DNA of 59,393 bases from a virus (taxonomy: Duplodnaviria; Caudoviricetes). Position numbers and translations under genes: made by a program. Numbering within the stretch: the stretch's first letter is position 1; the number at the start of each line of letters is the position of its first letter. The DNA lies in IMG/VR virus record IMGVR_UViG_3300042922_000225, positions 1-59,393 of that record; one strand, 5' to 3'. Shown here one piece after another: positions 3,458 to 59,393 of this stretch. The notes under the pieces are model-generated. The model had not been told where the DNA came from and did no database searches. It was given only the letters and a program-made list of their open reading frames with translations.

Positions 3458-3532
3458 TGGCTGACTACCCTGGACTCGAACCAGGAACCAATCGATTAAC
3501 AGTCGAACGCTCTGCCATTGAGCTAGTAGTCA
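3458..3532 (-). tRNA. trnN: tRNA-Asn (GTT)
   Basis: Cloverleaf on - strand: acceptor TGACTAC/GTAGTCA, D arm GCTC/GAGC, anticodon loop CT-GTT-AA, T arm CCTGG-TTCGAGT-CCAGG, encoded CCA. Confidence 0.95.
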
Positions 3533-5353: not shown

Positions 5354-6027
5354 TCGCTTTCGAGTTCCTTGTACAGCAGTTCGTAGACCTCAGCGCGGTT
5401 CTTACCCGGGTTAGCGGACTCGACCTTCTTAAAGCGTTCCCCCAACGTTTCGGGGGTGAACTTACCCGTGGCGATGTACTCCGTGTTCAGCTTAGTCTTG
5501 TACTCCGAGTTCACCTGACGGCTAGGCGGAGTACCCTTGTTCCGGGCCTGCTCAACCTTCTGCTGTGCGCCGCTCGGAGCTTCGGGCGTTCCTGCCTTGC
5601 CCGCATCTTCCGCAGACTGCTCGGTGATAAGGAAGGTGCGAAGTAGGGCGTTCTTCAGAGCATTGGTGGACCCGATGTTGGATGCTACCGCAGTGCCCGT
5701 TGCCAGGCCGTCTCCGGTACCTGAAACGGTTACGCTAGAGCCGTCCACAGTAGACACGATGGTGTAGGTGCCCTTGATGACAATGGAGACCTGAAGACGG
5801 TTATTGTTCAGCAGGTTCTCGTGCTTAATGACCTCCTCGTTGGGGAGGAAGATCAGTTTGTTAGCCACGAACTGCCGCTTGGTCTCTGCTGCCGCGTCCA
5901 CCGCCGTAATATAGGGCTTTCCACCCATGTTACCCGGGAGAGTTCCATTCTTCTCCACCGAAAGACTCTTCAGTACCTCCGCAAGCGCCGTGTAGACGTG
6001 CGGAACTTCAATCTGTGCCTGGACCAA
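5350..6027 (-). CDS. erf: ERF-family ssDNA annealing protein
   Basis: VEKNG, STVDGSSVTV.GTGDG and STNALKNALLRTFLI match the ERF core. Confidence 0.8.
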   Translation of the reverse strand: MVQAQIEVPHVYTALAEVLKSLSVEKNGTLPGNMGGKPYITAVDAAAETKRQFVANKLIFLPNEEVIKHENLLNNNRLQVSIVIKGTYTIVSTVDGSSVTVSGTGDGLATGTAVASNIGSTNALKNALLRTFLITEQSAEDAGKAGTPEAPSGAQQKVEQARNKGTPPSRQVNSEYKTKLNTEYIATGKFTPETLGERFKKVESANPGKNRAEVYELLYKELESE

Positions 6028-6634
6028 TGTGGTTCCTCTTCTCTTGTCGATATTTTGTCATCGCGATCTTACACTGCTCGCATTTACATCCAAAATTTGC
6101 ATACGCATTTACACTTCCGTGCCTTGGATCGGATGCAGGCAGACCTTCTCTTTTCCGTTCTTTGGCTTTATCTCGCTTACATACGCGACAATATCTTCGT
6201 CCACCCAGAACATACGTTGAGTTCTCAGTATAGGGGTGCCCTCGGGTACAACTTTTACGTCCCGCAAAATTGTGTCGTCCATGCAGAATTGTATCCCGGT
6301 TGTTGTCGAAACTGTTACCGCGCCGAAGGTTAGAGACTCGGTTGTTAAGCGGGTTGCCATCCCCGTGAAGCACCAATTCTCCTTGACCTGATAGCCTATC
6401 CTCAAAAGCCAAAGCAACCAGTCTGTGCGCCTTACGGGCCAAGGATCCTCCTCTCCCGTCCGATAGCCGGTAGACGGGGTATCCGCCTGTTGACGATCCG
6501 GGACGAAGAACTCGTTTACTTAAGTGGCTATAGACTTCTCCCCCCTCAGAAATTGAATATCGCCCTGAAAAACCAGGGACCTCTCGCCACTCCACGTTCG
6601 GGTTCACCTCGTCACCCCCTCGATTATTTTTCAC
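6008..6634 (-). CDS. NUMOD4-HNH homing endonuclease
   Basis: WREVPGFSGRYSISEGGEVYS (NUMOD4), AHRLVALAF, VLHGDGNPLNNRVSNLR (HNH), C-terminal CTRGH..CRVC. Confidence 0.9.
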   Translation of the reverse strand: MKNNRGGDEVNPNVEWREVPGFSGRYSISEGGEVYSHLSKRVLRPGSSTGGYPVYRLSDGRGGSLARKAHRLVALAFEDRLSGQGELVLHGDGNPLNNRVSNLRRGNSFDNNRDTILHGRHNFAGRKSCTRGHPYTENSTYVLGGRRYCRVCKRDKAKERKREGLPASDPRHGSVNAYANFGCKCEQCKIAMTKYRQEKRNHIGPGTD

Positions 6635-9084: not shown

Positions 9085-9323
9085 CGAACCACCACCGCAA
9101 TAAGGGCAATGACACTGGTAAGCCAACCCAAACTTGCAAGAGCCCAGAGCCGCTTGACCTGATCTTGTGTGCGGGCAAGAGACTTAGCCACCGTGGAGGC
9201 CAGGTCAAAAGTAGCGCGGTTCCCATCCGCCAGCGCCTCGTTAACTTCTCCCTGAGCCTGCCAGACCGACTTGATTTCGGCACCAGGCATAGGGCGCATA
9301 ATGTCCTCAGGCTTAGTGGTCAT
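9081..9323 (-). CDS. Membrane protein with a C-terminal TM helix
   Basis: Hydrophobic C-terminus LWALASLGWLTSVIALIAVVV. Confidence 0.55.
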   Translation of the reverse strand: MTTKPEDIMRPMPGAEIKSVWQAQGEVNEALADGNRATFDLASTVAKSLARTQDQVKRLWALASLGWLTSVIALIAVVVR

Positions 9324-9491: not shown

Positions 9492-10217
9492 CTACCTCTT
9501 CCTCTTCCTGTTTGATCGACATGTCTTACAGTAACGCCGCCCCTTGACGGTACGGCCGGTGTTAGCATCGGTGTACTCATGCCCGTGCACACAGTGGGTC
9601 TTATTTACCTGCCGGTCCGTACCGTCCTTCCGGCGGTCTTTCATGTTTTCCGAGTAAGTACCCCACCTGAGATTGTTAAGCGAGTTGTCGGATACACCCC
9701 TTCGGCCATGGAGTGCAATATGGCCTGGAGGTGGTGGCCCTAAAAATGCAAAGCAAACTAATCGATGTACCGAATGGAATTTCCCGCTTAGGGACACTCG
9801 GGCATAGCCCTGCTTGGTTATGGACGGGGAAAGAATACGACCCTCGTTGACTCGAACCGATCTACCAACGGAGTAATAAAAGGCGAGGCTTCTAACTTCC
9901 CCGTTACGGGAAACCTGATATCGACCTTCGTACCCCGGTATATTTCGCCATATAGGTGTTTCAGGGGGCGTGACGTTATTCTTACGGTCGGCATCTTTTG
10001 AAGCGCAGTCAGGGTCGCAGTAGTCTGTTCGACTACTCGGATGGTGATTAAAAATGCCACCGCAACCTAAACAATTACGCTCGTATGTAACCCTTTTTTG
10101 GTTTTGCGGCGTAATTAGAACCTGACAAGATTTCGAGCATGTTCGAGCTGGGGTATATTTCGAAGTGAAAAAAGACTGCCGGCAGACCTCGCAGTCTTGT
10201 AAAACTTGGTATCTCAT
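9492..10217 (-). CDS. NUMOD4-HNH homing endonuclease with N-terminal Zn-finger repeats
   Basis: CEVC..CSKSC and CLGC..CDPDC repeats, WRNIPGYEGRYQVS, VHRLVCFAF, NSLNNLRWGT; AT-richer than flanks. Confidence 0.88.
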   Translation of the reverse strand: MRYQVLQDCEVCRQSFFTSKYTPARTCSKSCQVLITPQNQKRVTYERNCLGCGGIFNHHPSSRTDYCDPDCASKDADRKNNVTPPETPIWRNIPGYEGRYQVSRNGEVRSLAFYYSVGRSVRVNEGRILSPSITKQGYARVSLSGKFHSVHRLVCFAFLGPPPPGHIALHGRRGVSDNSLNNLRWGTYSENMKDRRKDGTDRQVNKTHCVHGHEYTDANTGRTVKGRRYCKTCRSNRKRKR

Positions 10218-10447
10218 CGCCTCTTTTCCTCTCCCTTGTCTCGTCCCTTGTAATAGCTCAGCATCATTCCGTATCCCGCCCACGACAGTCCAACTATCGG
10301 GCCTCCGAACGCAAGATAGGTAAAGCCCGTAAAAACCGTAAGCAGGTACACGACAATAGTAAGGAACGCCGAGATAAAAAGCAAGGCTTCCAGCGTTCGG
10401 TATGCGTCCTCGCGCCACTGCGTGTTATACGGGGGCTTTTTCATCAC
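10214..10447 (-). CDS. Two-TM membrane protein
   Basis: Two hydrophobic segments. Confidence 0.55.
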   Translation of the reverse strand: MMKKPPYNTQWREDAYRTLEALLFISAFLTIVVYLLTVFTGFTYLAFGGPIVGLSWAGYGMMLSYYKGRDKGEEKRR

Positions 10448-24503: not shown

Positions 24504-24901
24504 GCGTGGACATCCGAAAGACAGACTCCAAGGGGCGCATAAACATTGGAGTAGCCGAAACTCACTATCAGGTCAAGCGGATTAACGAAACCGACATTCT
24601 CTTGGAAGCCGTGTACGACGTAGTGGATAAGATTCCGCTCCCCGCACCGAAAGAGGCCCTGGACTACCTTTCGTCCTTCGGCCTTGACCCCCTCAAAATT
24701 GCCCGGCAAAACGCCAATGAGCACGGCTACAATGAGTTTGTGCATGATGAGGCGGGACACCGCAGCTTCGAGTACGGAGCATTCCGATACGAGCGTAAAC
24801 CCTGGCCGGAAGGCTTCAACTGGGACGAGTTTGTCGCGATTGCAACAAGGGGGGATCGCTTGAAGAAGTTGGGTGCGGATTGGCCCGTCAAGGAGGCGTG
24901 A
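24500..24901 (+). CDS. Protein with a putative AbrB/MraZ-like N-terminal DNA-binding domain
   Basis: RKTDSKGRINIG resembles the swapped-hairpin D.KGR motif. Confidence 0.55.
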   Translation: MSVDIRKTDSKGRINIGVAETHYQVKRINETDILLEAVYDVVDKIPLPAPKEALDYLSSFGLDPLKIARQNANEHGYNEFVHDEAGHRSFEYGAFRYERKPWPEGFNWDEFVAIATRGDRLKKLGADWPVKEA

Positions 24902-24945
24902 TAGGCTGGTAGTTGCGAGTTACGGGTTCACATGTTGGAACCACT

Positions 24946-24984
24946 CACTAGGCCCCTGGCAAACACCGGGGGCTTTAGTGTTTT
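24946..24984 (+). terminator. Intrinsic terminator
   Basis: CACTAGGCCCCTGG / CCGGGGGCTTTAGTG hairpin followed by TTTT. Confidence 0.7.
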
Positions 24985-25014
24985 CACAGGCAAACGTAGT
25001 AGGCTAGATAGACA

Positions 25015-27706: not shown

Positions 27707-27851
27707 GCCCGATTCTTGCCGGTACTGCGATACGCCTAAAACCCGGCACGCCATCCAATGGGTTGACGGTTTAGGCTACCACAACTGGATTACCCCAACA
27801 GACGAACAGAGATTGTCCCGGATGAGGAATCGCAGGGCAGGGTCCGAATAG
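27690..27851 (+). CDS. Small Cys/His protein (53 aa)
   Basis: Manually translated MVEPIEPDSCRYC...HAIQW...GYHNWITPTDEQRLSRMRNRR; GGAGG RBS. Confidence 0.55.
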   Translation: MVEPIEPDSCRYCDTPKTRHAIQWVDGLGYHNWITPTDEQRLSRMRNRRAGSE

Positions 27852-27867
27852 CCTGCTGCACTGGAAA

Positions 27868-27928
27868 GTAACCTCCTCTGTTGTTGACGGCCCCCTTCTC
27901 GCTAACCCGCGGGGAGGGGGTCTTCTTT
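27868..27928 (+). ncRNA. Candidate sRNA with an anti-leader seed ACCUCCUCUGUUGUUG and a terminator
   Basis: Degenerate motif CTGCTGCACTGG at 27853, unpaired seed, then the hairpin CCCCCTTCTCGC/GCGGGGAGGGGG and a T-rich tail. Confidence 0.4.
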
Positions 27929-27974
27929 CGTATAAGGAGTGCGCTGATAAACTGGCTTTAGGAGGAAATGGCTT

Positions 27975-28499
27975 ATGAGTGATGAAGTGGCGATCCCAGA
28001 CCCGAACCGGGTGACCAAGTACATCTGGCGTAACATTGGCAAACGCAGCGCCCGGGAGATGGCCCAGGAACTCGGAGTCAGCCCCGAGGAGATCCTGCGG
28101 GCTAAGCGTGAGCTTGTCGAGGGCGTGGACGAGCTTACGATTCAGCTTCAAAAGGCTAAGCTGATGGAGTCCCTTCAAGAGATCGCGGATGACGCCAAGG
28201 AAGCGGCCATGAACGCCTCCGACGAGCGCAATAAGGCGGGTCTTTATAACGCCGCCGCCGGTTCCATTGACAAACTTCTCAAGGAATTCAACCGGACCTC
28301 CAAGAACGAATCCGAAGCCCTCAACGCCCTTAACCGAGCCCGAATTCAGGAGCTTGTGGAGCTTGTCCAGGAAACCGTTGACGAATCGGTGATCGAACTT
28401 TCCACCCGGTACGAAATTCCCGAACAGGACATCTACGACGTGTTCAACACCCACCTGGGGCGGGCCGCAGAGCGCCGGGACGCGGAGCTTAAGCGTTGA
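27975..28499 (+). CDS. terS: Terminase small subunit
   Basis: N-terminal HTH (SAREMAQELGVSPEEI), helical remainder, immediately upstream of TerL. Confidence 0.7.
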   Translation: MSDEVAIPDPNRVTKYIWRNIGKRSAREMAQELGVSPEEILRAKRELVEGVDELTIQLQKAKLMESLQEIADDAKEAAMNASDERNKAGLYNAAAGSIDKLLKEFNRTSKNESEALNALNRARIQELVELVQETVDESVIELSTRYEIPEQDIYDVFNTHLGRAAERRDAELKR

Positions 28500-30118
28500 A
28501 TCTGACAGATGTTGCCCGGGGCGCACAGGTAGAACTTCTCGTCAAAGCCCGTAAGCGTCAATACTTCAATGACCCCGTGCTGTGGGCAAAGGATTATCTG
28601 GGGATCGTTCCTTGGTCCGCCCAAGCCGATGTCGCAATGAGCCTGGTCGATAATAAGAACGTTGTTGTTAAGGCCGGTCACGAAGTCGGTAAGTCTTGGC
28701 TTGCCGGTCTTCTGATCTGTTGGTGGGTCGACACCCGCTGGGACCTCCCCGGCGGTTGCTTCGTGGTCTCTACTGCCCCCTCCACGCGTCAGATCAACGC
28801 TATCGTCTGGCGAGAAGTTCGCAAGTTCTACAACGTCGCAAAGAAGCGATACGCAGAGGGCAAGATCGACCACCCCCTCCCCGGCTACATCACCTCCGAT
28901 GCTCACTGGAGACTGCCGGACGGAATTGAACTCGGATACGGCGCTAAGCCCCCCGAGGGCGCGGACAAGGATTCCGGTAACGACTCGATGTCGGGTATCC
29001 ACGCGAGATACGTGCTAGCCGTGGGTGATGAGGCAGTCGGTCTAACGAAGGGCCTTATTGGCGACCTCGCGAACATCACATCCAACGCCACTTCACGCCG
29101 GTTCCTGATTTGTAACCCCACGAACCCGCTTGCTTACGTCGCATCGATCTTCAAGCGCGACCTCCAGGGCTGGTCCAAGCACACGATCAGCGTCTTCGAC
29201 AGCCCGAACTTCCACGGTCGAGGCGTGTGTGACCCCGAGAAGTGCAAGAAGTACGAAGAGCATCAATCGATGGAGCCCTACGAGGGATTCCCACGAGAAG
29301 TGCTTGAAACGCTCGTTGACCAAAGCTACGTTGACGACATTATCGAAGAGCACGGGTTTGGATCGCCCACCTACATCTCCCGCGTTACCGGCGAGTTTGC
29401 ATGGGACATGGGGTTCACCCTCATCCGGCCCGAGGACATCGCCAAGGGCATGGACGTGCTCATTATTCCGAGTGAAGATTCTTCCCCCGTCCTCGGCGTT
29501 GACGTGTCCCGATCTAAGTCCGGCGATAAGAACACCGTCTACCGGTACCACGATGGCAAACTTCGGTTTGTCGATGACTGGAACGATCCCAACGCCGTCA
29601 ACACCGCCGCTCGAATCCACCGACTGGCGATGGAGAACGGGGTAAGCGAAGTTCGCATTGACGGTGCGGGTCTGGGTGGCCCCATTGCCGACCTTGTACG
29701 AGAGCACGCTCAGGACCGATATCTTGTCATCGAAATCCTGGGTAACGACCCCTCGCCAGACAAGCACCGCTGGCAGAACCACCGTGCGTGGTCGTGGTGG
29801 TCTTTCCAGGATCGACTCTCTAAGGGCGAGATTGACCTGGATGGCGAAGACGAGAAACTCCAAGAGCAGCTACTTGGTGTCGAGATCAAGAAGCGCACCT
29901 CGGGTAACAACAGCCTCCTCCTGGAAAGCAAGCAGGAGATGGCAAAGCGCGGCATTCACTCCCCGGACCATGCCGACGCCGCGGTGTACGCTGCAACTGA
30001 CCTTTCTTGGTGGCTGAACCGGGAGCCAGCGGGGAGCGTCCACGCAATGGACCGCGCCGAAATCCCCGACATGGGCTTCTCGCAGTACCTCAACCGGCCC
30101 GGCATGCCGTGGCTTTAA
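28496..30118 (+). CDS. terL: Terminase large subunit
   Basis: Walker A AGHEVGKS, Walker B VGDEA, CNPT, nuclease LGVDVSR, IDGAGLG, SPDHADA. Confidence 0.93.
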   Translation: MNLTDVARGAQVELLVKARKRQYFNDPVLWAKDYLGIVPWSAQADVAMSLVDNKNVVVKAGHEVGKSWLAGLLICWWVDTRWDLPGGCFVVSTAPSTRQINAIVWREVRKFYNVAKKRYAEGKIDHPLPGYITSDAHWRLPDGIELGYGAKPPEGADKDSGNDSMSGIHARYVLAVGDEAVGLTKGLIGDLANITSNATSRRFLICNPTNPLAYVASIFKRDLQGWSKHTISVFDSPNFHGRGVCDPEKCKKYEEHQSMEPYEGFPREVLETLVDQSYVDDIIEEHGFGSPTYISRVTGEFAWDMGFTLIRPEDIAKGMDVLIIPSEDSSPVLGVDVSRSKSGDKNTVYRYHDGKLRFVDDWNDPNAVNTAARIHRLAMENGVSEVRIDGAGLGGPIADLVREHAQDRYLVIEILGNDPSPDKHRWQNHRAWSWWSFQDRLSKGEIDLDGEDEKLQEQLLGVEIKKRTSGNNSLLLESKQEMAKRGIHSPDHADAAVYAATDLSWWLNREPAGSVHAMDRAEIPDMGFSQYLNRPGMPWL

Positions 30119-30143: not shown

Positions 30144-31673
30144 ATGAGCCACGATATTGACCCTATTACCGTTCTTTCGGAGCAGTTTAGCCGCATTAAC
30201 GCCGAAAACGCTGAACTCCGCGAGAGCATGGCCGACGTTCGTGCTCAATTGGCGTACGAAGATCAGGGTTGGAAGTTGATCGGGGACTGGGTTTCAGGCG
30301 ATCACCTGGAGGGCCTGGACCTGGAGGAAGTCCAGACTATCGCGGAGCGCATTGCGCCTCGCGTGGTGGCCGGTGCCCTGCCTCGTCGCGCCGTGGATTT
30401 GCATTCTGGCTTCGTATGGGGTCGCGGTTGCTGGATCGAAGGCACCGAAAAGCCCAAGGGGCAGGGCCGTCCGACCGACATCCGTAAGTTCTACGTGGAC
30501 CCCGTGAACCAGGCGAGCCTGTTCTCTGACTCCGCTCGGGAATCCCTCCAGAAAGCCCGCTTCATTGACGGCAACGTTCTGGCGGCGGTGAACACGAAGA
30601 CCAAGCGTGTCAACCTCATCCCGTTCAATCAGGTGACCGGCCTTCGCGTGGACCCAGACTTCCCTGAGAACGTGCTGATGTACAAGCGCACGTGGGACCG
30701 CAAGGACAACAGCACCAACAGCACCGTATCTCGTTGGTATGTGACGACGCGGTTTACGGGCACCCGCCCCCCATCCATCGGTAAGGACGAGCAGGCAGTC
30801 CCCGTCGATCAGGACATCACGATTGTGGACCTGCGTGCTAACCGGCAGGTAGGACATGTCCTAGGCGTCCCGGACGGGCTGGCGGGTCTTCACTGGAGCG
30901 AGGCTTATGCCCAGGCGATGAAGTGGGGCATGATTGTCTCGGAGTCGCTGGCTAAGATCCTGTTCCGGGTCACTAATAAGACCAGCAAGGGCGTCCAAAA
31001 CTCGGCGGTTAAGATCGCAGGTTTCGGCGGTCACGGCGGCACTGCTTCTATGGCCGAAGGCCAGGAACTCTCGGCTGTTTCCACTGCTGGACGAGGCTAC
31101 GATTTCGGGTCTAACCGGGCACTCGCTGCAATGGCGGCGGCTGCCTGGAATGTGTCGAACTCTGACCTGCTCAACGATGCCAGCGCGAACGGGTCCAGCT
31201 ACGGGTCGGCTCAGTCCCTTGTCGCCGGTAACCGCAACGCTATGCTTCTTATGCAGCGCGAGTGGGCGGACTTCTACAAGGATATCTTCGAGGTTCTGAA
31301 GTTCCAGCGCCCCTCGGTCATCTTTCAGCCGTTCGAGGCCCCGGATAAGTACCGCGAGCTTCAGGCGATCACCCTGGGGGCTCCCGCGCTTAACGACGAA
31401 GAGTACCGGATGGCGGTCCTTGATGGCCTGGACATTGTGGGCGATGCTACCGAGATCCCGGACACGCTGAAGAACCGTGGGATCGACACGTCGGCTGCCG
31501 CTCAGCAAGCGGCTCCAGATCAAGGGCGTGCCAACGGAGCGGGCGGAGGCCAGGGCGCAAACGACCAGCGAAGCGACACGATCTCGTCTGAAAACCTGCG
31601 TCACGAGATGGCGATGACCGAAATTGCGGACCGGATTGAGGCTGCGGTCAGGAAACTCGAAGCTACTGACTAA
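30144..31673 (+). CDS. Portal protein
   Basis: 509 aa directly after TerL; LAYEDQGW N-terminal motif; synteny. Confidence 0.85.
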   Translation: MSHDIDPITVLSEQFSRINAENAELRESMADVRAQLAYEDQGWKLIGDWVSGDHLEGLDLEEVQTIAERIAPRVVAGALPRRAVDLHSGFVWGRGCWIEGTEKPKGQGRPTDIRKFYVDPVNQASLFSDSARESLQKARFIDGNVLAAVNTKTKRVNLIPFNQVTGLRVDPDFPENVLMYKRTWDRKDNSTNSTVSRWYVTTRFTGTRPPSIGKDEQAVPVDQDITIVDLRANRQVGHVLGVPDGLAGLHWSEAYAQAMKWGMIVSESLAKILFRVTNKTSKGVQNSAVKIAGFGGHGGTASMAEGQELSAVSTAGRGYDFGSNRALAAMAAAAWNVSNSDLLNDASANGSSYGSAQSLVAGNRNAMLLMQREWADFYKDIFEVLKFQRPSVIFQPFEAPDKYRELQAITLGAPALNDEEYRMAVLDGLDIVGDATEIPDTLKNRGIDTSAAAQQAAPDQGRANGAGGGQGANDQRSDTISSENLRHEMAMTEIADRIEAAVRKLEATD

Positions 31674-32598: not shown

Positions 32599-33056
32599 TG
32601 GCAACGAACGTTTACCGCAAGTACGCCGGTTTCCGTAACGAGGAGTGGGAAGTCCCCGCTGGTACTCGTGCGGGCCAGGTCGTTATCAACGGCACGGATG
32701 GTCGTGTGGGCCTCGCCCTCACTTCGCGCGGCGATGTTACGGCGGCTTACACCCTTCCGAACGGTCTGACGATCAGCAACAACCCCGTTGGTGGCACCGG
32801 CAACAAGCCCGACTGCGCCACCGTGGGTGTTGAGGGTTACGACGCTCTCCTGACCGTTACCGGCGTCACTGCCGGTGAGACCGTGGGCACCGGCCAGACC
32901 GGCACGGCCCAGGGCACCCCCGTTTACGGTGTGGTCTCGGGCGGCGCAATCACGTCGTACACGACCAGCGCTTCGGGCAACACTAAGATTGGCGTTATCG
33001 CTGACGGCAACATTGTCGGCGGCGTCGCCCCGGTTTCGATTGGAGTTGACCTCTAA
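32598..33056 (+). CDS. Capsid decoration (cement-like) protein
   Basis: Gly/Thr-rich beta protein between scaffold and major capsid genes. Confidence 0.65.
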   Translation: MATNVYRKYAGFRNEEWEVPAGTRAGQVVINGTDGRVGLALTSRGDVTAAYTLPNGLTISNNPVGGTGNKPDCATVGVEGYDALLTVTGVTAGETVGTGQTGTAQGTPVYGVVSGGAITSYTTSASGNTKIGVIADGNIVGGVAPVSIGVDL

Positions 33057-34201
33057 TGGCACTCGACCTTACTTGCGGCGGTCGCCTTAACGTCAGCCCG
33101 ATGGTGACTGAGCGTAGCGTTCAGCGCATGGCTCAGATTGTTGAGGGTATCAAGCTCGGTGGATACGCTGGTGAGCGTGCCCGCACGGACTTCAAGGAGA
33201 CCCTGACCACCTCTGACGCCCCCTACTCGTTCGCACAGCTTCTGAACATCCGGAACCTGCCGCTCTACGATGAGGCTCCCGTCCAGTGGAACCAGATCGC
33301 CAGCACCGAGAGCGTCCCGGACTTCCGTCCCACGTCGTTCTACTCGCTGCGTTCGAACTTCGCTACTCTGGGTCACGGCAACGGCACGGGAGGCAACCTG
33401 GTTGCTCCCAAGGTCCCGGAGCTGGGCTCGTATGTCGAGGCTTACGGTTACTCGGAGGAGGCCGTTCAGGTCGCCGTTGAGAAGCGAGGCTTCGCGTGGG
33501 GTATCTCGCTGGAGCGAGTCGTTAACGACCCGACCCGCGCGTACTCGCAGGTCCCTAACGACATGCTGAACGTCGGCACCAAGACGGATGAGTACGTTGT
33601 CTTCAGCGCCCTCGTTGACGGTGCCACCGCCGCGTCGCAGGTTGAGGGTGGAGTTGACCTGGTTACGGGCGACACCGTTCCGGCTAACCCCGTCATCTCG
33701 CCCGCCGCTATCCGCGTCGCCCTCCGGAACATCTCGGCCCGCACGGACGACCAGGGTAACAAGATCCCGCTCGCCCCGCGCTACCGCGTTGTGGTTTCCC
33801 TTGGCGAGGGTGACACGGTTGAGTGGATGCTCCAGGAGGCGGGCAACATCATCCGCGTCCAGGATGGCAACATCACCTACGGTGCCCCCGGTGCTGGTGG
33901 TCTGAACCGTATCGCTGGCGTCATCGAGTCGGAGTTCATCCCGGAGGGCTCGTGGTACCTGGTCCCGGACGCTGGCAGCACGGTTCGCCCGTCGCTGGTT
34001 CGTGTTCAGCTCCAGGGCTACACCGCGCCGGAAGTTTACGTCGAGGGTACGCCCGTGCCTGTTCTCGGCGGCGCTTCGAACGACCCGTTCCGCGCGTTCT
34101 CGTGGCACGACGACTCGGCCCGCTTCAAGTTCCGCATGTTCACCAACGCGGCGTTGATTACTCAGGATCAGCTCTCCTGGAGTGATGGCTCTGAGGCATA
34201 G
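33056..34201 (+). CDS. Major capsid protein
   Basis: 381 aa, strong codon bias, synteny, followed by a terminator; ETLTTSD, VPDFRP, VPELGSY. Confidence 0.88.
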
Positions 34202-34223
34202 AGTCTGCTAAACTAGAAGTAGC

Positions 34224-34264
34224 AGGCGAGCCCCCGTGGGAAACTGCGGGGGTTTCGCCTTTTC
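34224..34264 (+). terminator. Intrinsic terminator after the capsid operon
   Basis: AGGCGAGCCCCCGTGG-GAAA-CTGCGGGGGTTTCGCCT-TTT. Confidence 0.8.
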
Positions 34265-34278
34265 TAGAAGGAGATTGT

Positions 34279-34797
34279 GTGTGTAGCGTCGAGGGCTGCG
34301 AACGAAAAATGAAGTGCAAGGGCATGTGTTCAATGCACTACGACCGACTTCGTTTACGCGGAACGGTGGAACTAACGCGTCCATCCACCGAGGGGGAATG
34401 CCAGCTACTCGGGTGCGATAACCGAATAGCGTCAAAGGGTTACTGCAAGTTGCATTACGAGCGCATACGCCGAAATGGCACTCCCGGGATCGTAGGTACC
34501 GGCAGGCGTCCCAGAGGGGCGGGAGCCGATCACGGTGGGTACGTCCGAGTGCGCGTTATGCGGGGAGGGGTGGAGACAAAGATATTTGAGCACCGATATG
34601 TGATGGAGCAACATCTGGGCCGGGAACTGGAACCCCATGAGAACGTCCACCACATTAACGGGGTCCGAGACGACAACCGGATCGAGAACCTGGAGTTGTG
34701 GAGCACATCCCAGCCTAAGGGCCAACGAATTGAGGATAAGACCGCTTGGGCAATTGAGTGGTTGAAGGCCTACGCGCCCGACAGGCTGGTAAACTAG
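34279..34797 (+). CDS. HNH homing endonuclease with two N-terminal Cx4C..CxxH zinc fingers
   Basis: [31 protein letters not shown]. Confidence 0.9.
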
Positions 34798-34819: not shown

Positions 34820-35050
34820 ATGGCTTTTGACCCCAAGCCCATCAAGCTGACCTCGGTGGACGAAGAAGACTACACCAGCACCTACGAGCCCGAGGAGTAC
34901 GCGGTCGTCGGCGGTCTCCCCGTTTCCGAGGCAGTCCAGGCCATCGCCACCGTTGGCACCGCAGACGCGACCGACGAGGCTACCGCAATTGCCCTGGCTA
35001 ACGCGCTGAAGGCCCGTCTGAACCAGCTGATCACTGCGCTCAAGTCGTAA
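34820..35050 (+). CDS. Small head-fibre-like structural protein
   Basis: C-terminal ANALKARLNQLITALKS trimerisation-like helix; own promoter motif and terminator. Confidence 0.6.
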   Translation: MAFDPKPIKLTSVDEEDYTSTYEPEEYAVVGGLPVSEAVQAIATVGTADATDEATAIALANALKARLNQLITALKS

Positions 35051-35123
35051 CCCACAATCTCACACTTCAGGGGCTCTCACTTCGGTGGGGGCCTCTTCTT
35101 TTTGACATGAGAAAGGTCTAATC

Positions 35124-36476
35124 ATGCCCCGTCAGCCCGACAGGACCCTCCGATCCGGCACCGCAGACTACACCGTCTTGGTGGACGAGAAGGGCGTGCC
35201 TTACAAAGCCGGAGTGACCATCCAGCAAGTCGAGGGCGGCTTCGACCCCACAGGACTTGCTACCGATGCCAAGCAGGATGAGATCGTTACGGCCCTGGGC
35301 GCTGTGGCGGACGCAGTTTCCACGGAGAGTGCTGTCACTATCCTGGACGACGAGCTTCCGCCCGTGCAGGGCCAGGCCACCTCCAACAAGCAGGACGCCA
35401 TTATTTCGGCACTGAACACCCTGGCTAGCCGGATGGACATGCCCCTGGACGTGGAGGTCGGTAACGATTCGATTACGGTCTCCATTCCCTCGCTTCCGCT
35501 GGCTGACGGCGCTGCTACCTCTGCCAAGCAGGATCAGGCTTTGGAGGTATTGGGTGTCCTTCGGGACATCTTTCAAAACGGAACCCTGGGAGTTACCGGG
35601 GAACTAGGGCTTAAGCCCGCTGACATTGCCGCGCTGAAAACCGTCACCCTAGACAACCCCAGCATCGCCATTACTTCGTCTTCGCCTCTTTCGGTAAACC
35701 TGCCGGGAGTATCCACAGCGGACAAGCAGGACGCAATCCTGGCTCGCCTCCAGACGCTTATCGACAACTCCCTGGCACCCCGGCCTATCACCGATAACAG
35801 CGGGTCTATCACCGTGGACGGCGCTGTGGGTATCTCCGGCCCGGTCCAGGTCGAAGACAACGGCAAGTCTCTCACCGTGGATGGCATGGTAGCGGCCACT
35901 CAGTCCGGCCCCTGGAATGTTACGGTTACAGACGGATCAGGACCCCTTACGGTAGACGGCTCAGTCGCGGTCACAGACGCCACAGGAAACGGCCTGACAA
36001 GCGCTACAGCAGCGCCCGGAACCTCCGACCGGGGTCTTGTCGTCCGGAACATTCCTTCCGGCACTCAGGCGGTCTCAGGAACGGTTGCGGCCACGCAGTC
36101 CGGCACCTGGACCATGAATGTCAACTCCGCCCCTTCTGCCACCGCCCCAGCGCTCACCCCGTTCCGCACCACGTCCCTTACTGCCACGCCCCAGCAGATT
36201 AAGGCTTCCGCAGGGCGGGTCTACCAGTATAGTTTCCACAACCCCAACAACGCACCTGTTTACGTGCACTTCTGGGGTCTGCTGGCGGCTAACGTCACGC
36301 CCGGAACTACGGTGCCCGCCGTGACTCTCGGCGTTCCCGCGGGCTCGGTACTGGACGGTTACTGGACGGTCTCCCCGGCGGCTTTTGCGAGTGGCATTAC
36401 GGTCTCGGCCTCCACATCGTCTGCGGGGACAGGTGCGCCCAACACGGGACTTCTGGCCCAGGTCGGCTACGTCTGA
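35124..36476 (+). CDS. Repeat-rich fibre or decoration protein
   Basis: Four AT.xKQD repeats and three D.xG.xTVDG repeats; Ser/Thr/Ala/Gly-rich. Confidence 0.65.
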   Translation: MPRQPDRTLRSGTADYTVLVDEKGVPYKAGVTIQQVEGGFDPTGLATDAKQDEIVTALGAVADAVSTESAVTILDDELPPVQGQATSNKQDAIISALNTLASRMDMPLDVEVGNDSITVSIPSLPLADGAATSAKQDQALEVLGVLRDIFQNGTLGVTGELGLKPADIAALKTVTLDNPSIAITSSSPLSVNLPGVSTADKQDAILARLQTLIDNSLAPRPITDNSGSITVDGAVGISGPVQVEDNGKSLTVDGMVAATQSGPWNVTVTDGSGPLTVDGSVAVTDATGNGLTSATAAPGTSDRGLVVRNIPSGTQAVSGTVAATQSGTWTMNVNSAPSATAPALTPFRTTSLTATPQQIKASAGRVYQYSFHNPNNAPVYVHFWGLLAANVTPGTTVPAVTLGVPAGSVLDGYWTVSPAAFASGITVSASTSSAGTGAPNTGLLAQVGYV

Positions 36477-36727
36477 TGCCGGAGCTTAAGCCTACGGGCA
36501 AGATCATCGCACGAGGTCAGTCAGGGTTCTCAGTGCTCAGTACGGGTGTTGACATCGCGTTTGACCGTCCTATGCCGGAAGGTTCCACCTACAAGGTCTT
36601 CTACCGCCAGATATCAGGTGTGAACGTTGGACTCCCGTCAACCTCGAACCAAACCCCTACTGGATTCCGGGCTTCAGTTGGCATAGGCGTTGCCGCACAG
36701 TTTGAGTGGCTGGTGATTGAGGACTGA
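36476..36727 (+). CDS. Small beta-rich structural protein (H-type lectin/gp53-like)
   Basis: IAFDRPM...NQTPTGF...FEWLVI; coupled to the fibre gene. Confidence 0.55.
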   Translation: MPELKPTGKIIARGQSGFSVLSTGVDIAFDRPMPEGSTYKVFYRQISGVNVGLPSTSNQTPTGFRASVGIGVAAQFEWLVIED

Positions 36728-36739
36728 TAAGATTGAATT

Positions 36740-36835
36740 AGACGGGTGCCCCTCCCGTTGGCTGCTAGTTACCCTCCTCTCTCGCTAGCGCCAGGCCCCT
36801 CGGTTGAGCGTCCCACTTCCGCTCCCGAGGGGCTT
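36740..36835 (+). ncRNA. Candidate three-hairpin sRNA with C/U-rich loops
   Basis: Motif CTGATAAGAT at 36724, then three stems with loops UGCCCCU, UACCCUCCUCUCUC and UCCCACUUC; no ORF. Confidence 0.55.
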
Positions 36836-36855
36836 AAACTTTCCCAGCGTCTTCC

Positions 36856-36909
36856 CAGGTTGTGGGTGGCGGTTTGGGGTTGAGGGGTGGTAGTGTCGAG
36901 GTAGACAAC
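36856..36909 (+). repeat. 54-bp moron promoter cassette, copy 1
   Basis: 50/54 identical to 41683-41736; contains the extended -10 TGGTAGTGT. Confidence 0.85.
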
Positions 36910-36924
36910 GCTTGAGGAGGCGAA

Positions 36925-37380
36925 GTGATCGAATCTATCTTCTTTAACCCCTGGATCTGGATCGGGACCACCCTATGCACGATCCTGGTGGCGGTACTGA
37001 TTTTCGCAGTAGTGAGGGCTATTAGGGGCTCTGACGGGTATCTGGAGGACTGGCCCTGGATTACGGCTATCATCTCGGGCATCCTCGCCCTAGTTTTGGT
37101 GCCGACCCACTTCGGGTTTGTGCTCCCGCCCTACGACGCTTCGTTCTATCAGACCTACCGAATTACCGGGGAAGTGACGAGCATCGAGGCAGCGTTTAAC
37201 GGCGAGGAGGGGACCATGAGTCAGGTATTTGTCGCGGAGGTCGAGGGTGTAGACCTATTCATCCGTTCCGACGATCAGCGGTTCCGCACCGTCGATACGG
37301 GCGATGACGTGAACCTCGTTTGCACAAAGCAGTTCCGGTACTTCCAGCAGCCTTGGTACGATTGCAGCTTCGGAGGCTGA
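36925..37380 (+). CDS. Moron membrane protein (two TM plus a C-terminal soluble domain)
   Basis: Two hydrophobic helices, GAGGAGG RBS, own promoter, terminator at ~37390-37423. Confidence 0.7.
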   Translation: MIESIFFNPWIWIGTTLCTILVAVLIFAVVRAIRGSDGYLEDWPWITAIISGILALVLVPTHFGFVLPPYDASFYQTYRITGEVTSIEAAFNGEEGTMSQVFVAEVEGVDLFIRSDDQRFRTVDTGDDVNLVCTKQFRYFQQPWYDCSFGG

Positions 37381-37468
37381 TCGTACCCCGCAAGCCCCTT
37401 GTTCTTCGGAGCAGGGGGTTTTTGCGTGCCGCCTGATAAACTGGATTATAGACGTTTGGAGAGAGTTT

Positions 37469-37936
37469 ATGCCCGTTTCCTACCCGCAGGGTCACCCCGG
37501 AGTTTACCCGGTGGACGGCACCACCGATGTTGGCGCATTCCGCATCCTGTATGGGGACGTTAACTCCACCCCTTACGAGCCTGTGGAGCCGGGCTACCAG
37601 TCGTACGACGAGCTTTCGGACGCAGAGATCGAAGCGTTCCTGGCTCAAGGCGGCGGCTCGGTAACGCGCTCAATTGCGTACCTGTACCTCTCTCTTGCGG
37701 GCGATGCGGCCAAGCAGTCCATGTCAATCCAGGACCATGATCTCCGGGTAGACCTCTCCAAGCGCGCCGCGGATCTCCGGGCTCTGGCTGAGTTTTGGTT
37801 TGGGCGCGAGGACGCTGACGGTGCCGTAGAGGACGCTTTCCAGATCGTACCTACCGGTACAGGACACGGAGACTTCATTCCCGAGGCCGCAAGCCCTGTG
37901 TGGGGCCGCGCATACACGTGGGCACGGTGGCGTTAA
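37469..37936 (+). CDS. Head-to-tail adaptor
   Basis: FRILYGD, LSDAEIEAFL, DLRVD..KRAADLRALA; synteny. Confidence 0.75.
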   Translation: MPVSYPQGHPGVYPVDGTTDVGAFRILYGDVNSTPYEPVEPGYQSYDELSDAEIEAFLAQGGGSVTRSIAYLYLSLAGDAAKQSMSIQDHDLRVDLSKRAADLRALAEFWFGREDADGAVEDAFQIVPTGTGHGDFIPEAASPVWGRAYTWARWR

Positions 37937-38392
37937 GTGCCGCGTTTGGGCGGCGGTAACTGGGCGGACGCTATTGCCGAGGTTTCGGAGCGTCCCGAGT
38001 TCCAGCGCGCCTCTATCCGCATTGCACAGCCCGCAGACCCGGTAGACCCCGACGAGGACTACTACAACCCCGAGACGGGTGAGTTCGAGTACCCCGAGGA
38101 CGTTGACCTGTACACGGGCCGTGCTCGGATCATGCCTATCCGCGAGTCCTCAGACGACATGGGCGGCATTAACCGGACTACGGTCATTGGTATTCGCGTG
38201 CAGATTCCCCGTGCTGAGGCTAACTTCCGTATCCGGCGGGGCATTCGCATCTTCGTTGATGCCTCCCCCGATAACCCGAGCCTTGTAGGCCGCATTTTCA
38301 CGGTGGCCGATGATTACCAGGGCTCTAGTGCCGCGTCCCGGACAATCATGGCGTATGCGGACGTGGACGATGAGGTGTCAAGTGGCGAATAA
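37937..38392 (+). CDS. Head-to-tail stopper
   Basis: YNPETGE..LYTGRARI, RVQIP, DNPSLVGRIFTV. Confidence 0.72.
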   Translation: MPRLGGGNWADAIAEVSERPEFQRASIRIAQPADPVDPDEDYYNPETGEFEYPEDVDLYTGRARIMPIRESSDDMGGINRTTVIGIRVQIPRAEANFRIRRGIRIFVDASPDNPSLVGRIFTVADDYQGSSAASRTIMAYADVDDEVSSGE

Positions 38393-38768
38393 CGGCAACT
38401 TCGGGGAGGCAGTCCTTGCGTTCTTCCGCGAGAAAGTGGACAACCTGGAAAACGGGACGCGGGATGCGGCGATCAACGCGGGAGAAGAAATCGCAAACCT
38501 CACCCGCCACCACATCGAGACCCGAGGAATCTCAAAGCCGGGACGTATAGAAACCGGGCGGATGTTGGATTCGGTGGATAGCCGGGTCACCGAGAACACC
38601 GCGGACCACGTTCAGGTTAAGGCGGGATTCCACGATGCGCCTTCGTATACGGTCTTCCAGGAGCTAGGTACCCGGTCGATTGAGCCGATGTGGGCACTCA
38701 CCGATGCCGCAGAAGAAGTCCTCCCCAAACTCAAGCGCGATATTGACGGGGTGATCCGCCGAGCATGA
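38382..38768 (+). CDS. Neck protein (HK97 gp10-like)
   Basis: GRIETGRMLDSV and YTVFQELGT motifs. Confidence 0.75.
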   Translation: MANNGNFGEAVLAFFREKVDNLENGTRDAAINAGEEIANLTRHHIETRGISKPGRIETGRMLDSVDSRVTENTADHVQVKAGFHDAPSYTVFQELGTRSIEPMWALTDAAEEVLPKLKRDIDGVIRRA

Positions 38769-40800: not shown

Positions 40801-41616
40801 GTGCCCGTGGATTACGAACGGCTCCGGAGCAACGCGCGACAGTCCGTCGTTGACGTTCGAATCGGACCCTCCGGCGGTACCACTCTTGGTATCACGGACC
40901 TGGCTGTGCCCCTTGCCACCGAGCTTAACAACACTGGCGGAACCTCGGGTATGCAGAAGGCATCGCAGAGCATCAGTTGGAACGACTGGAGCTTCGGCCT
41001 TGAGGCTTCCGAGACCAACAACGAGCCGTCGCTTGCTGACGCGGCTTCCTACGAGGAGTTCGGTCAGTCCAACTACGGCGGCGATGTTTCGTTCTACATG
41101 CCTGCCACTTACGATGACAATAGCAACGCGCATAGCGTCATCTACGACCTGACCGACCAGCCGGGTACGATCAACGACATCTCGATCCGCATTGACGGGG
41201 ACAAGGCCGTTGGTTCGGACTTCGTGGACGGCGACTACGTTTCGGCATTCCGCGCGGAGATCGGTGGAGAGGCCAACCCCTTCACCCCGGGCGAGTCCAA
41301 GCGCCGGACGGTTTCGTACAACCAGAAGGGCGACTTCTCGCATTACACGGTTGTCGGCACCCACACCATCGTTCCGATCCCCGCCCCCACCGACCCGTGG
41401 GATGCAGGCCGGAAGGCACGCCTTCGCGCGTCGGTCCAGGGCCGCGAGTACACCAACGCTCTTGAGTTCCGCTCCTCGGACGCGACGGTTGTGGACATCT
41501 ACAAGGGCGGCTTCTATGAGGTCACCGGTACCGCGGGCGACACGGCCACGATCACCATTGAGGACGTTGAGGCCGGTACGTCGGTTGATGTCGAGGTGAC
41601 GGTTACCGCGCCGTAA
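40801..41616 (+). CDS. Major tail protein with a C-terminal Ig-like domain
   Basis: PLATELN; C-terminal FRSSDATVV...GDTATITI Ig-like segment; terminator follows. Confidence 0.8.
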   Translation: MPVDYERLRSNARQSVVDVRIGPSGGTTLGITDLAVPLATELNNTGGTSGMQKASQSISWNDWSFGLEASETNNEPSLADAASYEEFGQSNYGGDVSFYMPATYDDNSNAHSVIYDLTDQPGTINDISIRIDGDKAVGSDFVDGDYVSAFRAEIGGEANPFTPGESKRRTVSYNQKGDFSHYTVVGTHTIVPIPAPTDPWDAGRKARLRASVQGREYTNALEFRSSDATVVDIYKGGFYEVTGTAGDTATITIEDVEAGTSVDVEVTVTAP

Positions 41617-41630
41617 GCAACCCCCCCCCC

Positions 41631-41669
41631 ACACGACCCCTCTTGCTTAGGTAGGAGGGGTTTCGTGTT
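41631..41669 (+). terminator. Intrinsic terminator
   Basis: ACACGACCCCTCTTGC / GTAGGAGGGGTTTCGTGT hairpin. Confidence 0.7.
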
Positions 41670-41682
41670 CCCAGGAACTTTT

Positions 41683-41736
41683 CAGGTTGAGGGTGGCGGT
41701 TTGGGGTTCGGGGATGGTAGTGTCGAGGTAGACAAC
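41683..41736 (+). repeat. 54-bp moron promoter cassette, copy 2
   Basis: 50/54 identical to 36856-36909. Confidence 0.85.
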
Positions 41737-41762
41737 ATACTTCGACTTTGGAGCAAAGATTC

Positions 41763-42032
41763 GTGACTTATACCCGCCCCGTATACATGACCAACCCCGC
41801 GTACACTTCGGGGTGGAAGATAGTAACGCTTAGTTTACTTGCTGGCGTTCTCTCCACCGCTGGGTTTTTTGGCGTTGGGTGGGGCCTGGCGAATCTAGCT
41901 TATAACTTGTTCGGTGTGCCCCTGTCGATGATCGGGTTTATGGGTCTGGTCACGGGGTATGTCGGATGTGCGGTGGGGAGGGCGTCAGGTTGGGTGACAT
42001 ATCACTCGATCTCGCAGACGAGGCGGGCATAA
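41763..42032 (+). CDS. Moron two-TM membrane protein
   Basis: Two Gly-rich hydrophobic helices; inserted between the major tail and chaperone genes. Confidence 0.6.
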   Translation: MTYTRPVYMTNPAYTSGWKIVTLSLLAGVLSTAGFFGVGWGLANLAYNLFGVPLSMIGFMGLVTGYVGCAVGRASGWVTYHSISQTRRA

Positions 42033-42153
42033 GCGGTTACCGCGCCGTAACTCCTGCTAAACTGGGATAGAGCACAAATAGCGTGCAAGCCCCCGGTCTT
42101 TCGGCTTCTAGGCTGGAGGGTCGGGGGTCACGCTTTTGATTGAGAGGGAGAAC

Positions 42154-58843: not shown

Positions 58844-59184
58844 AGGTTCTCACGCTCCAAGATAGCAAGTACATCTTTCGCACCGCCGTAGGGGTCCTCG
58901 TTACCATACTCGATCGCCCAAGACTTCTGATGCTGAATAGCCCGTTTCAATTCGTCCCGAAGACCCGTGAGCGCCGCACGGAGGGTCTTGTACTCCTTCG
59001 ACACACGCTTGTAAACGTAGCCGTCGTGCCAGACCGTGAAACGAGGCCCATCGCCGTAGCTGTAGGTCGTCTCGATGCTCCAGTGGCAATCCTTGTCCTT
59101 GGGGTGATCCACGTTGACAAGCTCGTACCAGATACCGCTCAACCGAACGATCTCATCAGACAGCACGTTGTAGTCGTCGCTCAC
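58840..59184 (-). CDS. Hypothetical protein
   Basis: HPKDKDCHW..SYG motif; coupled to polA. Confidence 0.65.
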   Translation of the reverse strand: MSDDYNVLSDEIVRLSGIWYELVNVDHPKDKDCHWSIETTYSYGDGPRFTVWHDGYVYKRVSKEYKTLRAALTGLRDELKRAIQHQKSWAIEYGNEDPYGGAKDVLAILERENL

Positions 59185-59393
59185 AGCACCCTCCCTCTCG
59201 TGTTGAACCCGGAATCCCGGTTGCCCTCGATCTTACCGCGCCTTTCGAACTCACGCAACCCTCGGTTTACTTCTCTAATCACAGCCGCCTCTCCCGACCC
59301 TCCACGTTCGAACGGGGCGTAGTCCGGGAAATGCCGCCGTAGAGTGCGGTGATCGACTCCCATTGTCCGGCGGATCTCATTCAGCGACACGCC
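59156..59393. repeat. Terminal direct repeat (right copy)
   Basis: Matches 1-238. Confidence 0.95.

Follow-up and report, generated by a model that had tools for sequence, protein, structure and literature searches.

Does the short stretch at 36724-36835 of the phage record IMGVR_UViG_3300042922_000225, located between the open reading frames (ORFs) ORF83 and ORF151, encode an RNA of its own, and what could the loops of such an RNA do? The record was analysed over its entire length of 59,393 bp and is called the window here. A preliminary description of this DNA had proposed a three-hairpin small RNA here, and comparative evidence now backs a discrete, structured non-coding unit on the + strand that starts shortly behind a promoter-like motif and has a terminator-type hairpin as its last part. 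The locus is a structurally conserved, previously unannotated small RNA element of Microbacterium-type phages, and in a clade of Microbacterium-type siphophages it is conserved as structure rather than as sequence.

A three-hairpin element conserved as structure

The three abutting hairpins that had been noticed on the + strand at 36741-36835 are confirmed both by the sequence and by RNAfold. Together with the motif in front of them and the junction behind them, they form a block with the following parts:

36724-36735, + strand: promoter-like motif variant CTGATAAGATTG (TGaTAAGAT; TGnTAAGAT, extended -10 type), left junction of the block
36741-36759, + strand: hairpin 1, GACGGG / CCCGUU, loop UGCCCCU
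36760-36792, + strand: hairpin 2, GGC-U-GCUAGU / GCUAGCGCC, bulged U at 36763
36793-36835, + strand: hairpin 3, 11-bp GC-rich outer stem, UU bulge, 5-bp inner stem, loop UCCCACUUC
36836-36839, + strand: right end of the conserved block (right junction)

At the left end, CTGATAAGAT occupies 36724-36733. The loop of hairpin 2 comprises 14 nt (UACCCUCCUCUCUC, 36770-36783) and contains CCUCC, while a stretch of hairpin 1, CCCCUCCC, aligns with a conserved CCCUCCC of the relatives introduced below. On the + strand, RNAfold yields -48.1 kcal/mol for the 115-nt element (z -4.48) and -52.7 kcal/mol for a 136-nt stretch (z -3.06), and in both cases none of 200 shuffles is equally stable; the minus strand of the window is less exceptional (-53.0, z -1.86, 12 of 200 shuffles as stable). 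Hairpin 3 has the GC-rich stem of an intrinsic terminator (11 + 5 bp) and is followed in the window by the weakly U-rich tail UUAAACUUUCCC. With its 9-nt loop it lies outside the rule of the terminator consensus scan, which accepts loops of 3-8 nt, and is not listed there.

Searches by primary sequence did not lead to relatives: blastn in distant mode with 36400-37000 found no match in 50,697 phage records, and exact-pattern scans of IMG/VR returned 0 matches for the hairpin 2 stretch and one for the hairpin 3 stretch, a chance match inside unrelated sequence. Covariance models did. Model R1, for which the window was the only input sequence, has full-length + strand matches in the phages LeeroyJenkins, Lifes, WaterT and BarnCat (15 bits each), in Cassita (11 bits) and in the IMG/VR locus L004 (16.2 bits), and these matches fall in the unannotated gap directly before terS; in LeeroyJenkins (L003, MN096358) the element occupies 6254-6366, behind the hexamer TAAACT. 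Model R2, trained on four sequences, recovers L005 (26.2 bits, E 4e-6), L019-L022 (IMG/VR contigs reached via a terS profile; 23.1-28 bits, E 1e-7 to 5e-6) and G006 (24 bits, E 9e-6) outside its training set, where members overall score 23-28 bits with E values of 1e-7 to 4e-5; the window reaches 113.9 bits but belonged to the training set. The element is placed in a three-hairpin CCUCC-loop family by full-length + strand R2 matches at E < 1e-3 together with three hairpins predicted independently, and its full-length + strand relatives amount to five cultured phages of Microbacterium paraoxydans and seven IMG/VR contigs. The search of genomes with R2 is lossy and missed, in G003-G005, copies that cmsearch finds in L020-L022; because its first pass loses matches, a single copy per genome is not established.

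In 11 genomes or contigs the element precedes terS, and in two, as well as in the metagenome contigs described below, it precedes the first head-tail gene. G006 repeats the position seen in the window, with the element directly before a homologue of ORF155 (51% amino acid identity) and after an unrelated 456-aa ORF, and in both cases it lies ~9-13 kb from terS. Throughout, the element is followed by a second promoter-like motif, a Shine-Dalgarno (SD) sequence and the gene, i.e. terS or the first head-tail gene. The neighbourhoods of ORF155 homologues in L003, L005, L009 and L010, which had been reached via ORF155 and the portal protein, contain the motif only and no block before the gene; the lineage-private element suggested by these neighbourhoods was discarded when the covariance model located the element before terS. 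The GenBank records fetched carry no annotation of it. Where the element stands before ORF155, as it does in the window and in G006, the gap in front of terS instead contains a C-rich stretch (CCUCCUC / CCUCCCCCCC) beside a single U-tailed terminator (L023 1380-1500 and window 27852-27935).

Identity of the relatives to the window is only 42-51%, and still they fold individually into the same three hairpins, with z values of -2.9 to -5.5. In L020 this fold is strand-specific, with -41.9 (z -3.94) on the + strand and -34.4 (z 0.07, 98 of 200 shuffles as good) on the minus strand. The preliminary description had named stem covariation and loop conservation as a test, and the former is seen in alignment A8, which consists of 10 distinct sequences aligned to the model. 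Of its 276 base-pair cells, 86.2% are paired (66.2 +/- 1.8 in shuffles), and 22 of 30 pairs have changed on both sides (13.1 +/- 1.9 in shuffles), neither value being matched by any of 500 shuffles; controls with slid partners give 37-60% paired cells and four to seven pairs changed on both sides. Listed by helix, the values are 91.8% paired with 5/5 pairs changed on both sides for helix 1, 70% and 4/4 for helix 2, 87% and 3/6 for helix 3, and 98% and 8/10 for helix 4, the outer stem of hairpin 3.

The loops are kept as well. CCUCC, the anti-Shine-Dalgarno (anti-SD) core of the ribosome, is present in a hairpin-loop segment of all members and lies in an apical loop in nine of ten minimum free energy (MFE) folds, the tenth sequence, L022, sharing the loop sequence of L021. 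Every one of the 10 members has a pyrimidine content of 70-100% in loops 1 and 2, and CCCTCCC is invariant in alignment A2. MAFFT finds GAAT(T/C)AG, CCCTCCC and TTGAGC...CCGCTCC...CCGAGGGG as shared stretches. In 10/10 members a TAnnnT hexamer precedes hairpin 1, at a distance of 5-8 nt from the base where pairing begins, and a GC-rich last hairpin is common to all of them. The U-tract behind this hairpin is weak in the window and in LeeroyJenkins and good in L019-L022 (tail UUUUGUCUUGCC), where the U-rich UUUUGUCUU follows the hairpin.

The statement that the element has no ORF holds for the family, though not for the bare list of ORFs in the window: a 45-aa GTG ORF at 36746-36883 is present in that mechanical list, has no counterpart in nine relatives and is interrupted by the junction of the metagenome contigs at 36839. 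No ORF is common to 10 element members, and L026 is without any ORF overlapping the element. ARAGORN, searching for transfer RNAs (tRNAs) and transfer-messenger RNA, reports only a tRNA-Asn at 3458-3532 in the window and nothing at the element, and a tRNA is the only match when the whole window is scanned against Rfam by cmscan at gathering thresholds. An Rfam search, one of the checks proposed in the preliminary description, assigns the element to no known family; membership in the 6C covariance model at its gathering threshold is likewise not found. With E values up to 10 allowed, 36600-36950 matches only Pab160 (17.8 bits, threshold 47.4), and the elements of L020, L024 and L025 match nothing in Rfam at E up to 1. 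The genomes of 185,579 species yielded neither an exact copy of a 24-nt piece of the block nor a relative in a scan with the terS profile; by these two means no prophage or host copy was found, the RNA model not having been applied to hosts.

Gene neighbourhood, cassette exchange and the repeated motif

The portal protein of the window is 62% identical to those of the five M. paraoxydans phages LeeroyJenkins, Lifes, Cassita, WaterT and BarnCat. Genes for replication (polA, ThyX, primase-polymerase, SSB, exonuclease and SNF2 helicase) are arranged on the minus strand across the ends of the record, which carries an exact 238-bp direct repeat at 1-238 and 59156-59393, either a terminal repeat or an overlap of a circular assembly. 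The + strand from ~24 kb to 54 kb encodes terS/terL, portal, capsid, an HNH gene, variable ORFs and tail genes. The features relevant for the element are:

27975-30118, + strand: terS/terL
30144-31673, + strand: portal
33056-34201, + strand: major capsid protein (Pfam Phage_capsid_4)
35124-36476, + strand: ORF450, with internal 25-nt repeats at 35258 and 35513
36476-36727, + strand: ORF83, upstream neighbour of the element, 83 aa, TGA stop inside CTGATAAGAT
36841-36909, + strand: 69-nt repeat ending in -10-like GGTAGACAAC (second copy at 41668-41736, 87% identical)
36925-37380, + strand: ORF151, downstream of the element, 151 aa, own terminator at ~37395-37425
37433-37444, + strand: motif CTGATAAACTGG, preceding the SD (GGAGAGAG) and the ATG of ORF155
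37469-37936, + strand: ORF155, first gene of the head-tail/tail block
25297, 27944, 30125, 31677, 34205, 34786, 37433, 39190, 42054, 43207, 46338, 48200 and 52391, + strand: copies of the motif

For ORF450 and ORF83, neither Pfam and PHROGs nor the phage records and IMG/VR contain a relative (for ORF450, tblastn and a pattern scan were run in addition), and ORF151 matches nothing in Pfam or PHROGs. Each copy of the 69-nt repeat has a hairpin before it and a gene after it, namely ORF151 and an ORF starting near 41748-41765. The copy at 36841-36909 lies outside the conserved block and reads as a promoter-like leader of ORF151; the separate promoter that had been postulated for this gene is conceivable from the -10-like GGTAGACAAC at its end. 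Repeat, ORF151 and terminator (36840 to ~37430) look like an inserted promoter-gene-terminator cassette. In relatives, the motif that leads ORF155 comes straight after the conserved block. Three genes for HNH-type endonucleases occur in the window (6008-6634 and 9492-10418 on the minus strand, 34279-34797 on the + strand), two of them with NUMOD4 and HNH_3, and the one behind the capsid gene occupies the place of a GIY-YIG endonuclease in the LeeroyJenkins group.

Contigs from four coded public metagenome runs (X2-X5) were placed on 35000-38500, and only the parts they cover were interpreted. In all four runs, contigs join 36839 to 37428 or 37432 and lack the 69-nt repeat and ORF151. One contig from X5 joins 35097 to 36724, skipping 35098-36723 with the cassette of ORF450 and ORF83, which is weaker evidence as the shorter side of this joint measures only 30 nt. 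The block itself differs from the window at one position in 92 nt in X2, compared with 42 in the next 315 nt, and at 12 positions in 193 nt in X3, compared with 28 in 194 nt. The sole variant listed within it, 36763 T>C in X3 and X5, falls on the bulged base of hairpin 2. Recent exchange could be an alternative cause of this high conservation. The block is kept while the gene cassettes on both sides are swapped, and it is a discrete cassette.

The parent motif CTGATAAACTGG occurs in 13 copies, all of them on the + strand of the late region and in intergenic gaps; the exact form CTGATARAYT is found eight times (0.28 expected). The version in the relatives, CTGATAGAATGG, is present in 5, 2, 4, 2 and 1 copies in L003, L004, L005, L009 and L010, respectively, again always on the + strand. 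The copies at 27944, 37433 and 43207 stand directly behind terminators. Near-leaderless mRNAs had been proposed for key structural genes, and four of the 13 copies fit this picture, lying 9-10 nt before an SD-less ATG (25297, 30125 in front of the portal gene, 31677 and 39190); terS, ORF155 and several tail genes, on the other hand, are SD-led. In Corynebacterium glutamicum, TAnnnT with a spacer of 3-11 nt to the start site is described as the sigma-A -10 motif (PMC3890552). The motif seems to mark borders at which gene cassettes are exchanged, and this repeated extended -10-type sequence probably organises late transcription in the phage group.

Many canonical U-tailed terminators divide the late region. 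The units at 24914 and 27870, which had been counted as further members of one system with the element, show no detectable kinship with it. With filters off, R2 scores them at 10 bits (24878-24985, E 0.14) and 8.1 bits (27828-27931, E 0.58), in the range of other terminators of the window, and we read both as ordinary terminators, each a motif variant followed by what appears to be a canonical U-tailed terminator. Two further ORF-free arrangements were noted, CTGCTAAACTAG followed by a terminator behind the capsid gene (34205-34255) and CTGCTAAACTGG followed by a long hairpin (42054-42135, hairpin at ~42088-42130). Downstream of several motif copies, a partly palindromic conserved stretch, (C)TTTCGAAAGGA(A), takes the place of the SD (L003 13282 and 14543, L004 8397, L005 14785 and window 34786) and could fold on itself.

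Units of similar order exist in other phages. Behind the capsid-like gene of the Clavibacter phage CN1A (L028, 8969-9105), a terminator is followed by TGcTAAGCT, a hairpin with loop UUUCCUCCUUCU, a U-tailed terminator, CTGGTAGACTGA and an ATG at 9103; the recorded start of CN1A_54 is 9202, and this annotated start may be placed too far downstream. Behind the capsid gene of Microbacterium phage Lyell (L027, 9153-9333), a terminator and TGcTAGGCT lead up to a 17-bp hairpin whose loop of ~40 nt abounds in CUCC/CCUCC; a U-tail and GAGTAGAATGG come next, with an ATG 7 nt later, and this stretch is 94-100% conserved in 11 records of M. foliorum phages. Common to both are a terminator, a motif-like TGcTA(A/G)GCT, a CCUCC-loop hairpin, a U-tailed terminator and a second motif, in this order, from which the ATG is 6-7 nt away. 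R2 gives only 9.5-13 bits for the units of CN1A, CMP1 and Lyell, too low to establish homology, and their likeness was recognized by eye and by folding.

Possible modes of action

On the reading that we favour, the locus would be a gene-sized non-coding cassette encoding a + strand small RNA (sRNA) of ~100 nt, which would be transcribed from its own motif or cut from a late transcript and would end at hairpin 3. The exposed CCUCC loops would bind to SD regions that are rich in G, in mRNAs of the phage or of the host, and would compete with the 30S subunit, acting in a way analogous to the C-rich loops of the actinobacterial 6C/B11 sRNA, either in trans or in cis on downstream read-through transcripts. 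The chances stand about even that the element is such a discrete phage sRNA of ~100 nt, working through anti-SD loops by a 6C/B11-like mechanism without being a member of the 6C family. We infer the separate transcript of ~100 nt and its pairing with SD regions.

A specific target had been proposed for loop 2, the ribosome-binding site at 59188-59200 on the minus strand. The one-bulge pairing exists and is worth -22.3 kcal/mol, while its specificity does not exceed chance: other sites reach -21.8, and when the loop is shuffled with its composition preserved, 30 of 60 versions have a site in the genome that is at least as good. The specific target is thus at chance level; that anti-SD loops match some ribosome-binding site by chance had been cautioned from the outset. 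G-rich SD sequences are common in the window. The site at 59188-59200 falls within the 238-bp end repeat and is present in two copies (positions 45 and 59200).

Several points weigh against the sRNA reading. The RNA may not end after hairpin 3, because the tails UUAAACUUU of the window and UUCCAUUUCC of the LeeroyJenkins group are poor U-tracts, unlike the clean U-tails at terminators elsewhere in the window. Any SD is a partner for CCUCC, and no target stands out. Many late genes of the phage are SD-led and would be hit as well, and a depletion of anti-SD pentamers in late mRNAs was rejected, the late + strand having 51 copies of CCTCC where 44.6 are expected. Only one C-rich loop is universal, because hairpin 1 of G006 has a UUCG loop. 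Pairing is poorly conserved in the inner stem of hairpin 3 (62.8%) and at the base of hairpin 2 (70%), the pair counts come from an alignment fitted to the model and are biased towards structure, and the 10 sequences represent about five lineages and hence fewer events than cells. Finally, a promoter role of the motif, which reads as an extended -10 (TGnTAnnnT), is presumed from its sequence and position.

We consider it unlikely, though by no means far-fetched, that the element is a boundary module that functions without base pairing. Hairpin 3 would then terminate the upstream unit, hairpins 1 and 2 would be accessory, serving in 3'-end protection against exonucleases or as pause or RNase sites, and the C/U loops would be a by-product. 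Such a role would suit the constant position of the element at module boundaries, where a stop codon precedes it and a promoter-like motif comes after it, in a late region divided by many terminator and motif pairs, and it would suit the U-rich tail in L019-L022 as well as the 5-16 bits that R2, with filters off, awards to terminators of the window (e.g. 34166-34264, 35021-35104 and 41593-41672). However, single hairpins suffice for termination elsewhere in the same genomes, so that two extra conserved hairpins need an explanation, and CCUCC and the 70-100% pyrimidine loops are kept while the stems are replaced. In the X5 contig with the 30-nt joint side, moreover, the block directly follows a terminator (35069-35096) and is not the terminator of ORF83, the analogous unit in CN1A and Lyell is located behind a separate terminator, too, and hairpin 3 of the window ends in a weak U-tract.

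It is likewise unlikely that the element acts as a cis leader, the CCUCC loop pairing on read-through transcripts with the strong SD of terS or ORF155 and silencing translation, from which transcripts starting at the proximal motif would escape. Variants would be a put-like modification of RNA polymerase or a terminated transcript that awaits an antiterminator, similar to lambda 6S / tR', and an antitermination device would account for the many terminators of the late region. The distance from the element to the SD-led gene downstream is always 15-90 nt. In the LeeroyJenkins group and L005, the SDs of terS (GGGAGGGGAGG / GGAGGGGAGG) complement the invariant CCCUCCC, CCCUCCCUU is paired with the terS SD when L005:7595-7775 is folded by MFE, and loop 2 of the window matches GAGGAGG (ORF151) and GAGAGAG (ORF155) over 7 bp. 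Complementarity of 5-7 bp between CCUCC-type loops and any SD is, however, what chance predicts. A promoter-like motif separates element and gene in every case, the downstream gene varies (terS, ORF155 or ORF151), and the cassette moves independently of it.

Distinctly doubtful is a phage mimic of the 3' tail of 16S ribosomal RNA, a late and abundant RNA that would titrate SDs or a factor recognising the anti-SD and would shift initiation from SD-led host and early mRNAs to SD-less, near-leaderless late ones. If this were true, the favoured mRNAs would be those whose starts follow a copy of the promoter motif by 9-10 nt, such as those of the portal, the 31696 gene and others. The similar units behind the capsid genes of CN1A and of 11 Lyell-type Microbacterium phages hint that such a device may be common among phages infecting Microbacteriaceae.

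A site acting at the level of DNA (pac, an origin or an inverted repeat bound by a protein) is very improbable, and so are hairpins that arose by chance in intergenic DNA of high GC content: pac sites often lie near terS, which the element adjoins in most members, and the two strands of the window fold about equally (-52.7 vs -53.0), but the strand asymmetry of the relatives, where G-U pairs make the structure strand-specific (minus strand of L020, z 0.07), speaks against a DNA-level role, as do three stems that differ in sequence without a repeated operator, their covariation between lineages and the distance of ~9-13 kb to terS in the window and G006, and the E values of sequences on which R2 had not been trained, 1e-7 to 9e-6, exclude chance.

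In phages of Actinobacteria, regulatory RNAs are a nearly unexplored subject, and the non-coding RNAs (ncRNAs) found there come without a defined structure family or a proposed mechanism. The element raises the question of whether phages adjust translation initiation by an RNA that rivals the ribosome for SD sequences, and five cultured phages, a culturable host (M. paraoxydans NRRL B-14843) and an invariant single-stranded anti-SD core make this question testable at the bench. The covariance model could become an RNA family entry, and the element accounts for unannotated gaps of ~180 nt in GenBank phage records.

Comparison with known systems

With a Rho-independent terminator the element shares the GC-rich stem of hairpin 3, and hairpin 3 resembles the terminators of the window; the pyrimidine- or U-rich tail behind it is weak in the window, and the element differs in the two further conserved hairpins with conserved loops upstream. 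The put RNA of HK022 and the pR'-6S-tR' leader of lambda are promoter-proximal structured RNAs that head a terminator-containing block of phage genes. To our knowledge, C-rich loops are no feature of either, and in the element described here a promoter-like motif separates the structure from the genes.

The motifs CTGATAAACTGG and CTGATAGAATGG resemble the asymmetric intergenic motifs of EC/EI Microbacterium phages and the start-associated sequences of EF/K phages, which are of unknown function (PMC7302621). All are one-stranded, conserved within a group and present in about a dozen copies in short intergenic gaps before gene starts (PMC7302621). The motifs described here differ in sequence, in their extended -10 character (TGnTAnnnT) and in standing often behind terminators, and the LeeroyJenkins group does not appear in the portion of PMC7302621 consulted.

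Abundant phage ncRNAs of unknown function have been reported for mycobacteriophages and Rhodococcus phage WC1 (PMC5712189, PMC10986025), among them the Pleft RNA and the 63-64 intergenic RNA of L5/D29/StarStuff and nc_1-3 of WC1. Like the element, these are intergenic phage RNAs, and some are located centrally in the structural region or at its edges (PMC5712189, PMC10986025). They emerged from RNA-seq and have no structure or anti-SD loops described in the consulted parts of these papers, whereas the element is known from its structure and loops alone. The literature yielded no prior description of the element, supplementary material not being covered, and no paper on Microbacterium phage LeeroyJenkins.

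The closest counterpart is 6C/B11, an sRNA of a host group that lacks Hfq, whose C-rich loops are functional, pair with G-rich ribosome-binding sites and repress translation (PMC10470900). The likeness is one of architecture only, i.e. hairpins with C-rich apical loops, two in the present case, followed by a terminator-type hairpin. The element is encoded by phages and 6C by the chromosome, and even at E values up to 10 Rfam gives no match to 6C. It has three hairpins with mixed C/U loops that hold an exact CCUCC instead of runs of C, and it resides at boundaries of late-gene modules behind a phage-specific repeated motif. C-rich-loop sRNAs and phage ncRNAs are known kinds of molecules; this family and its CCUCC loops in phages appear to be new.

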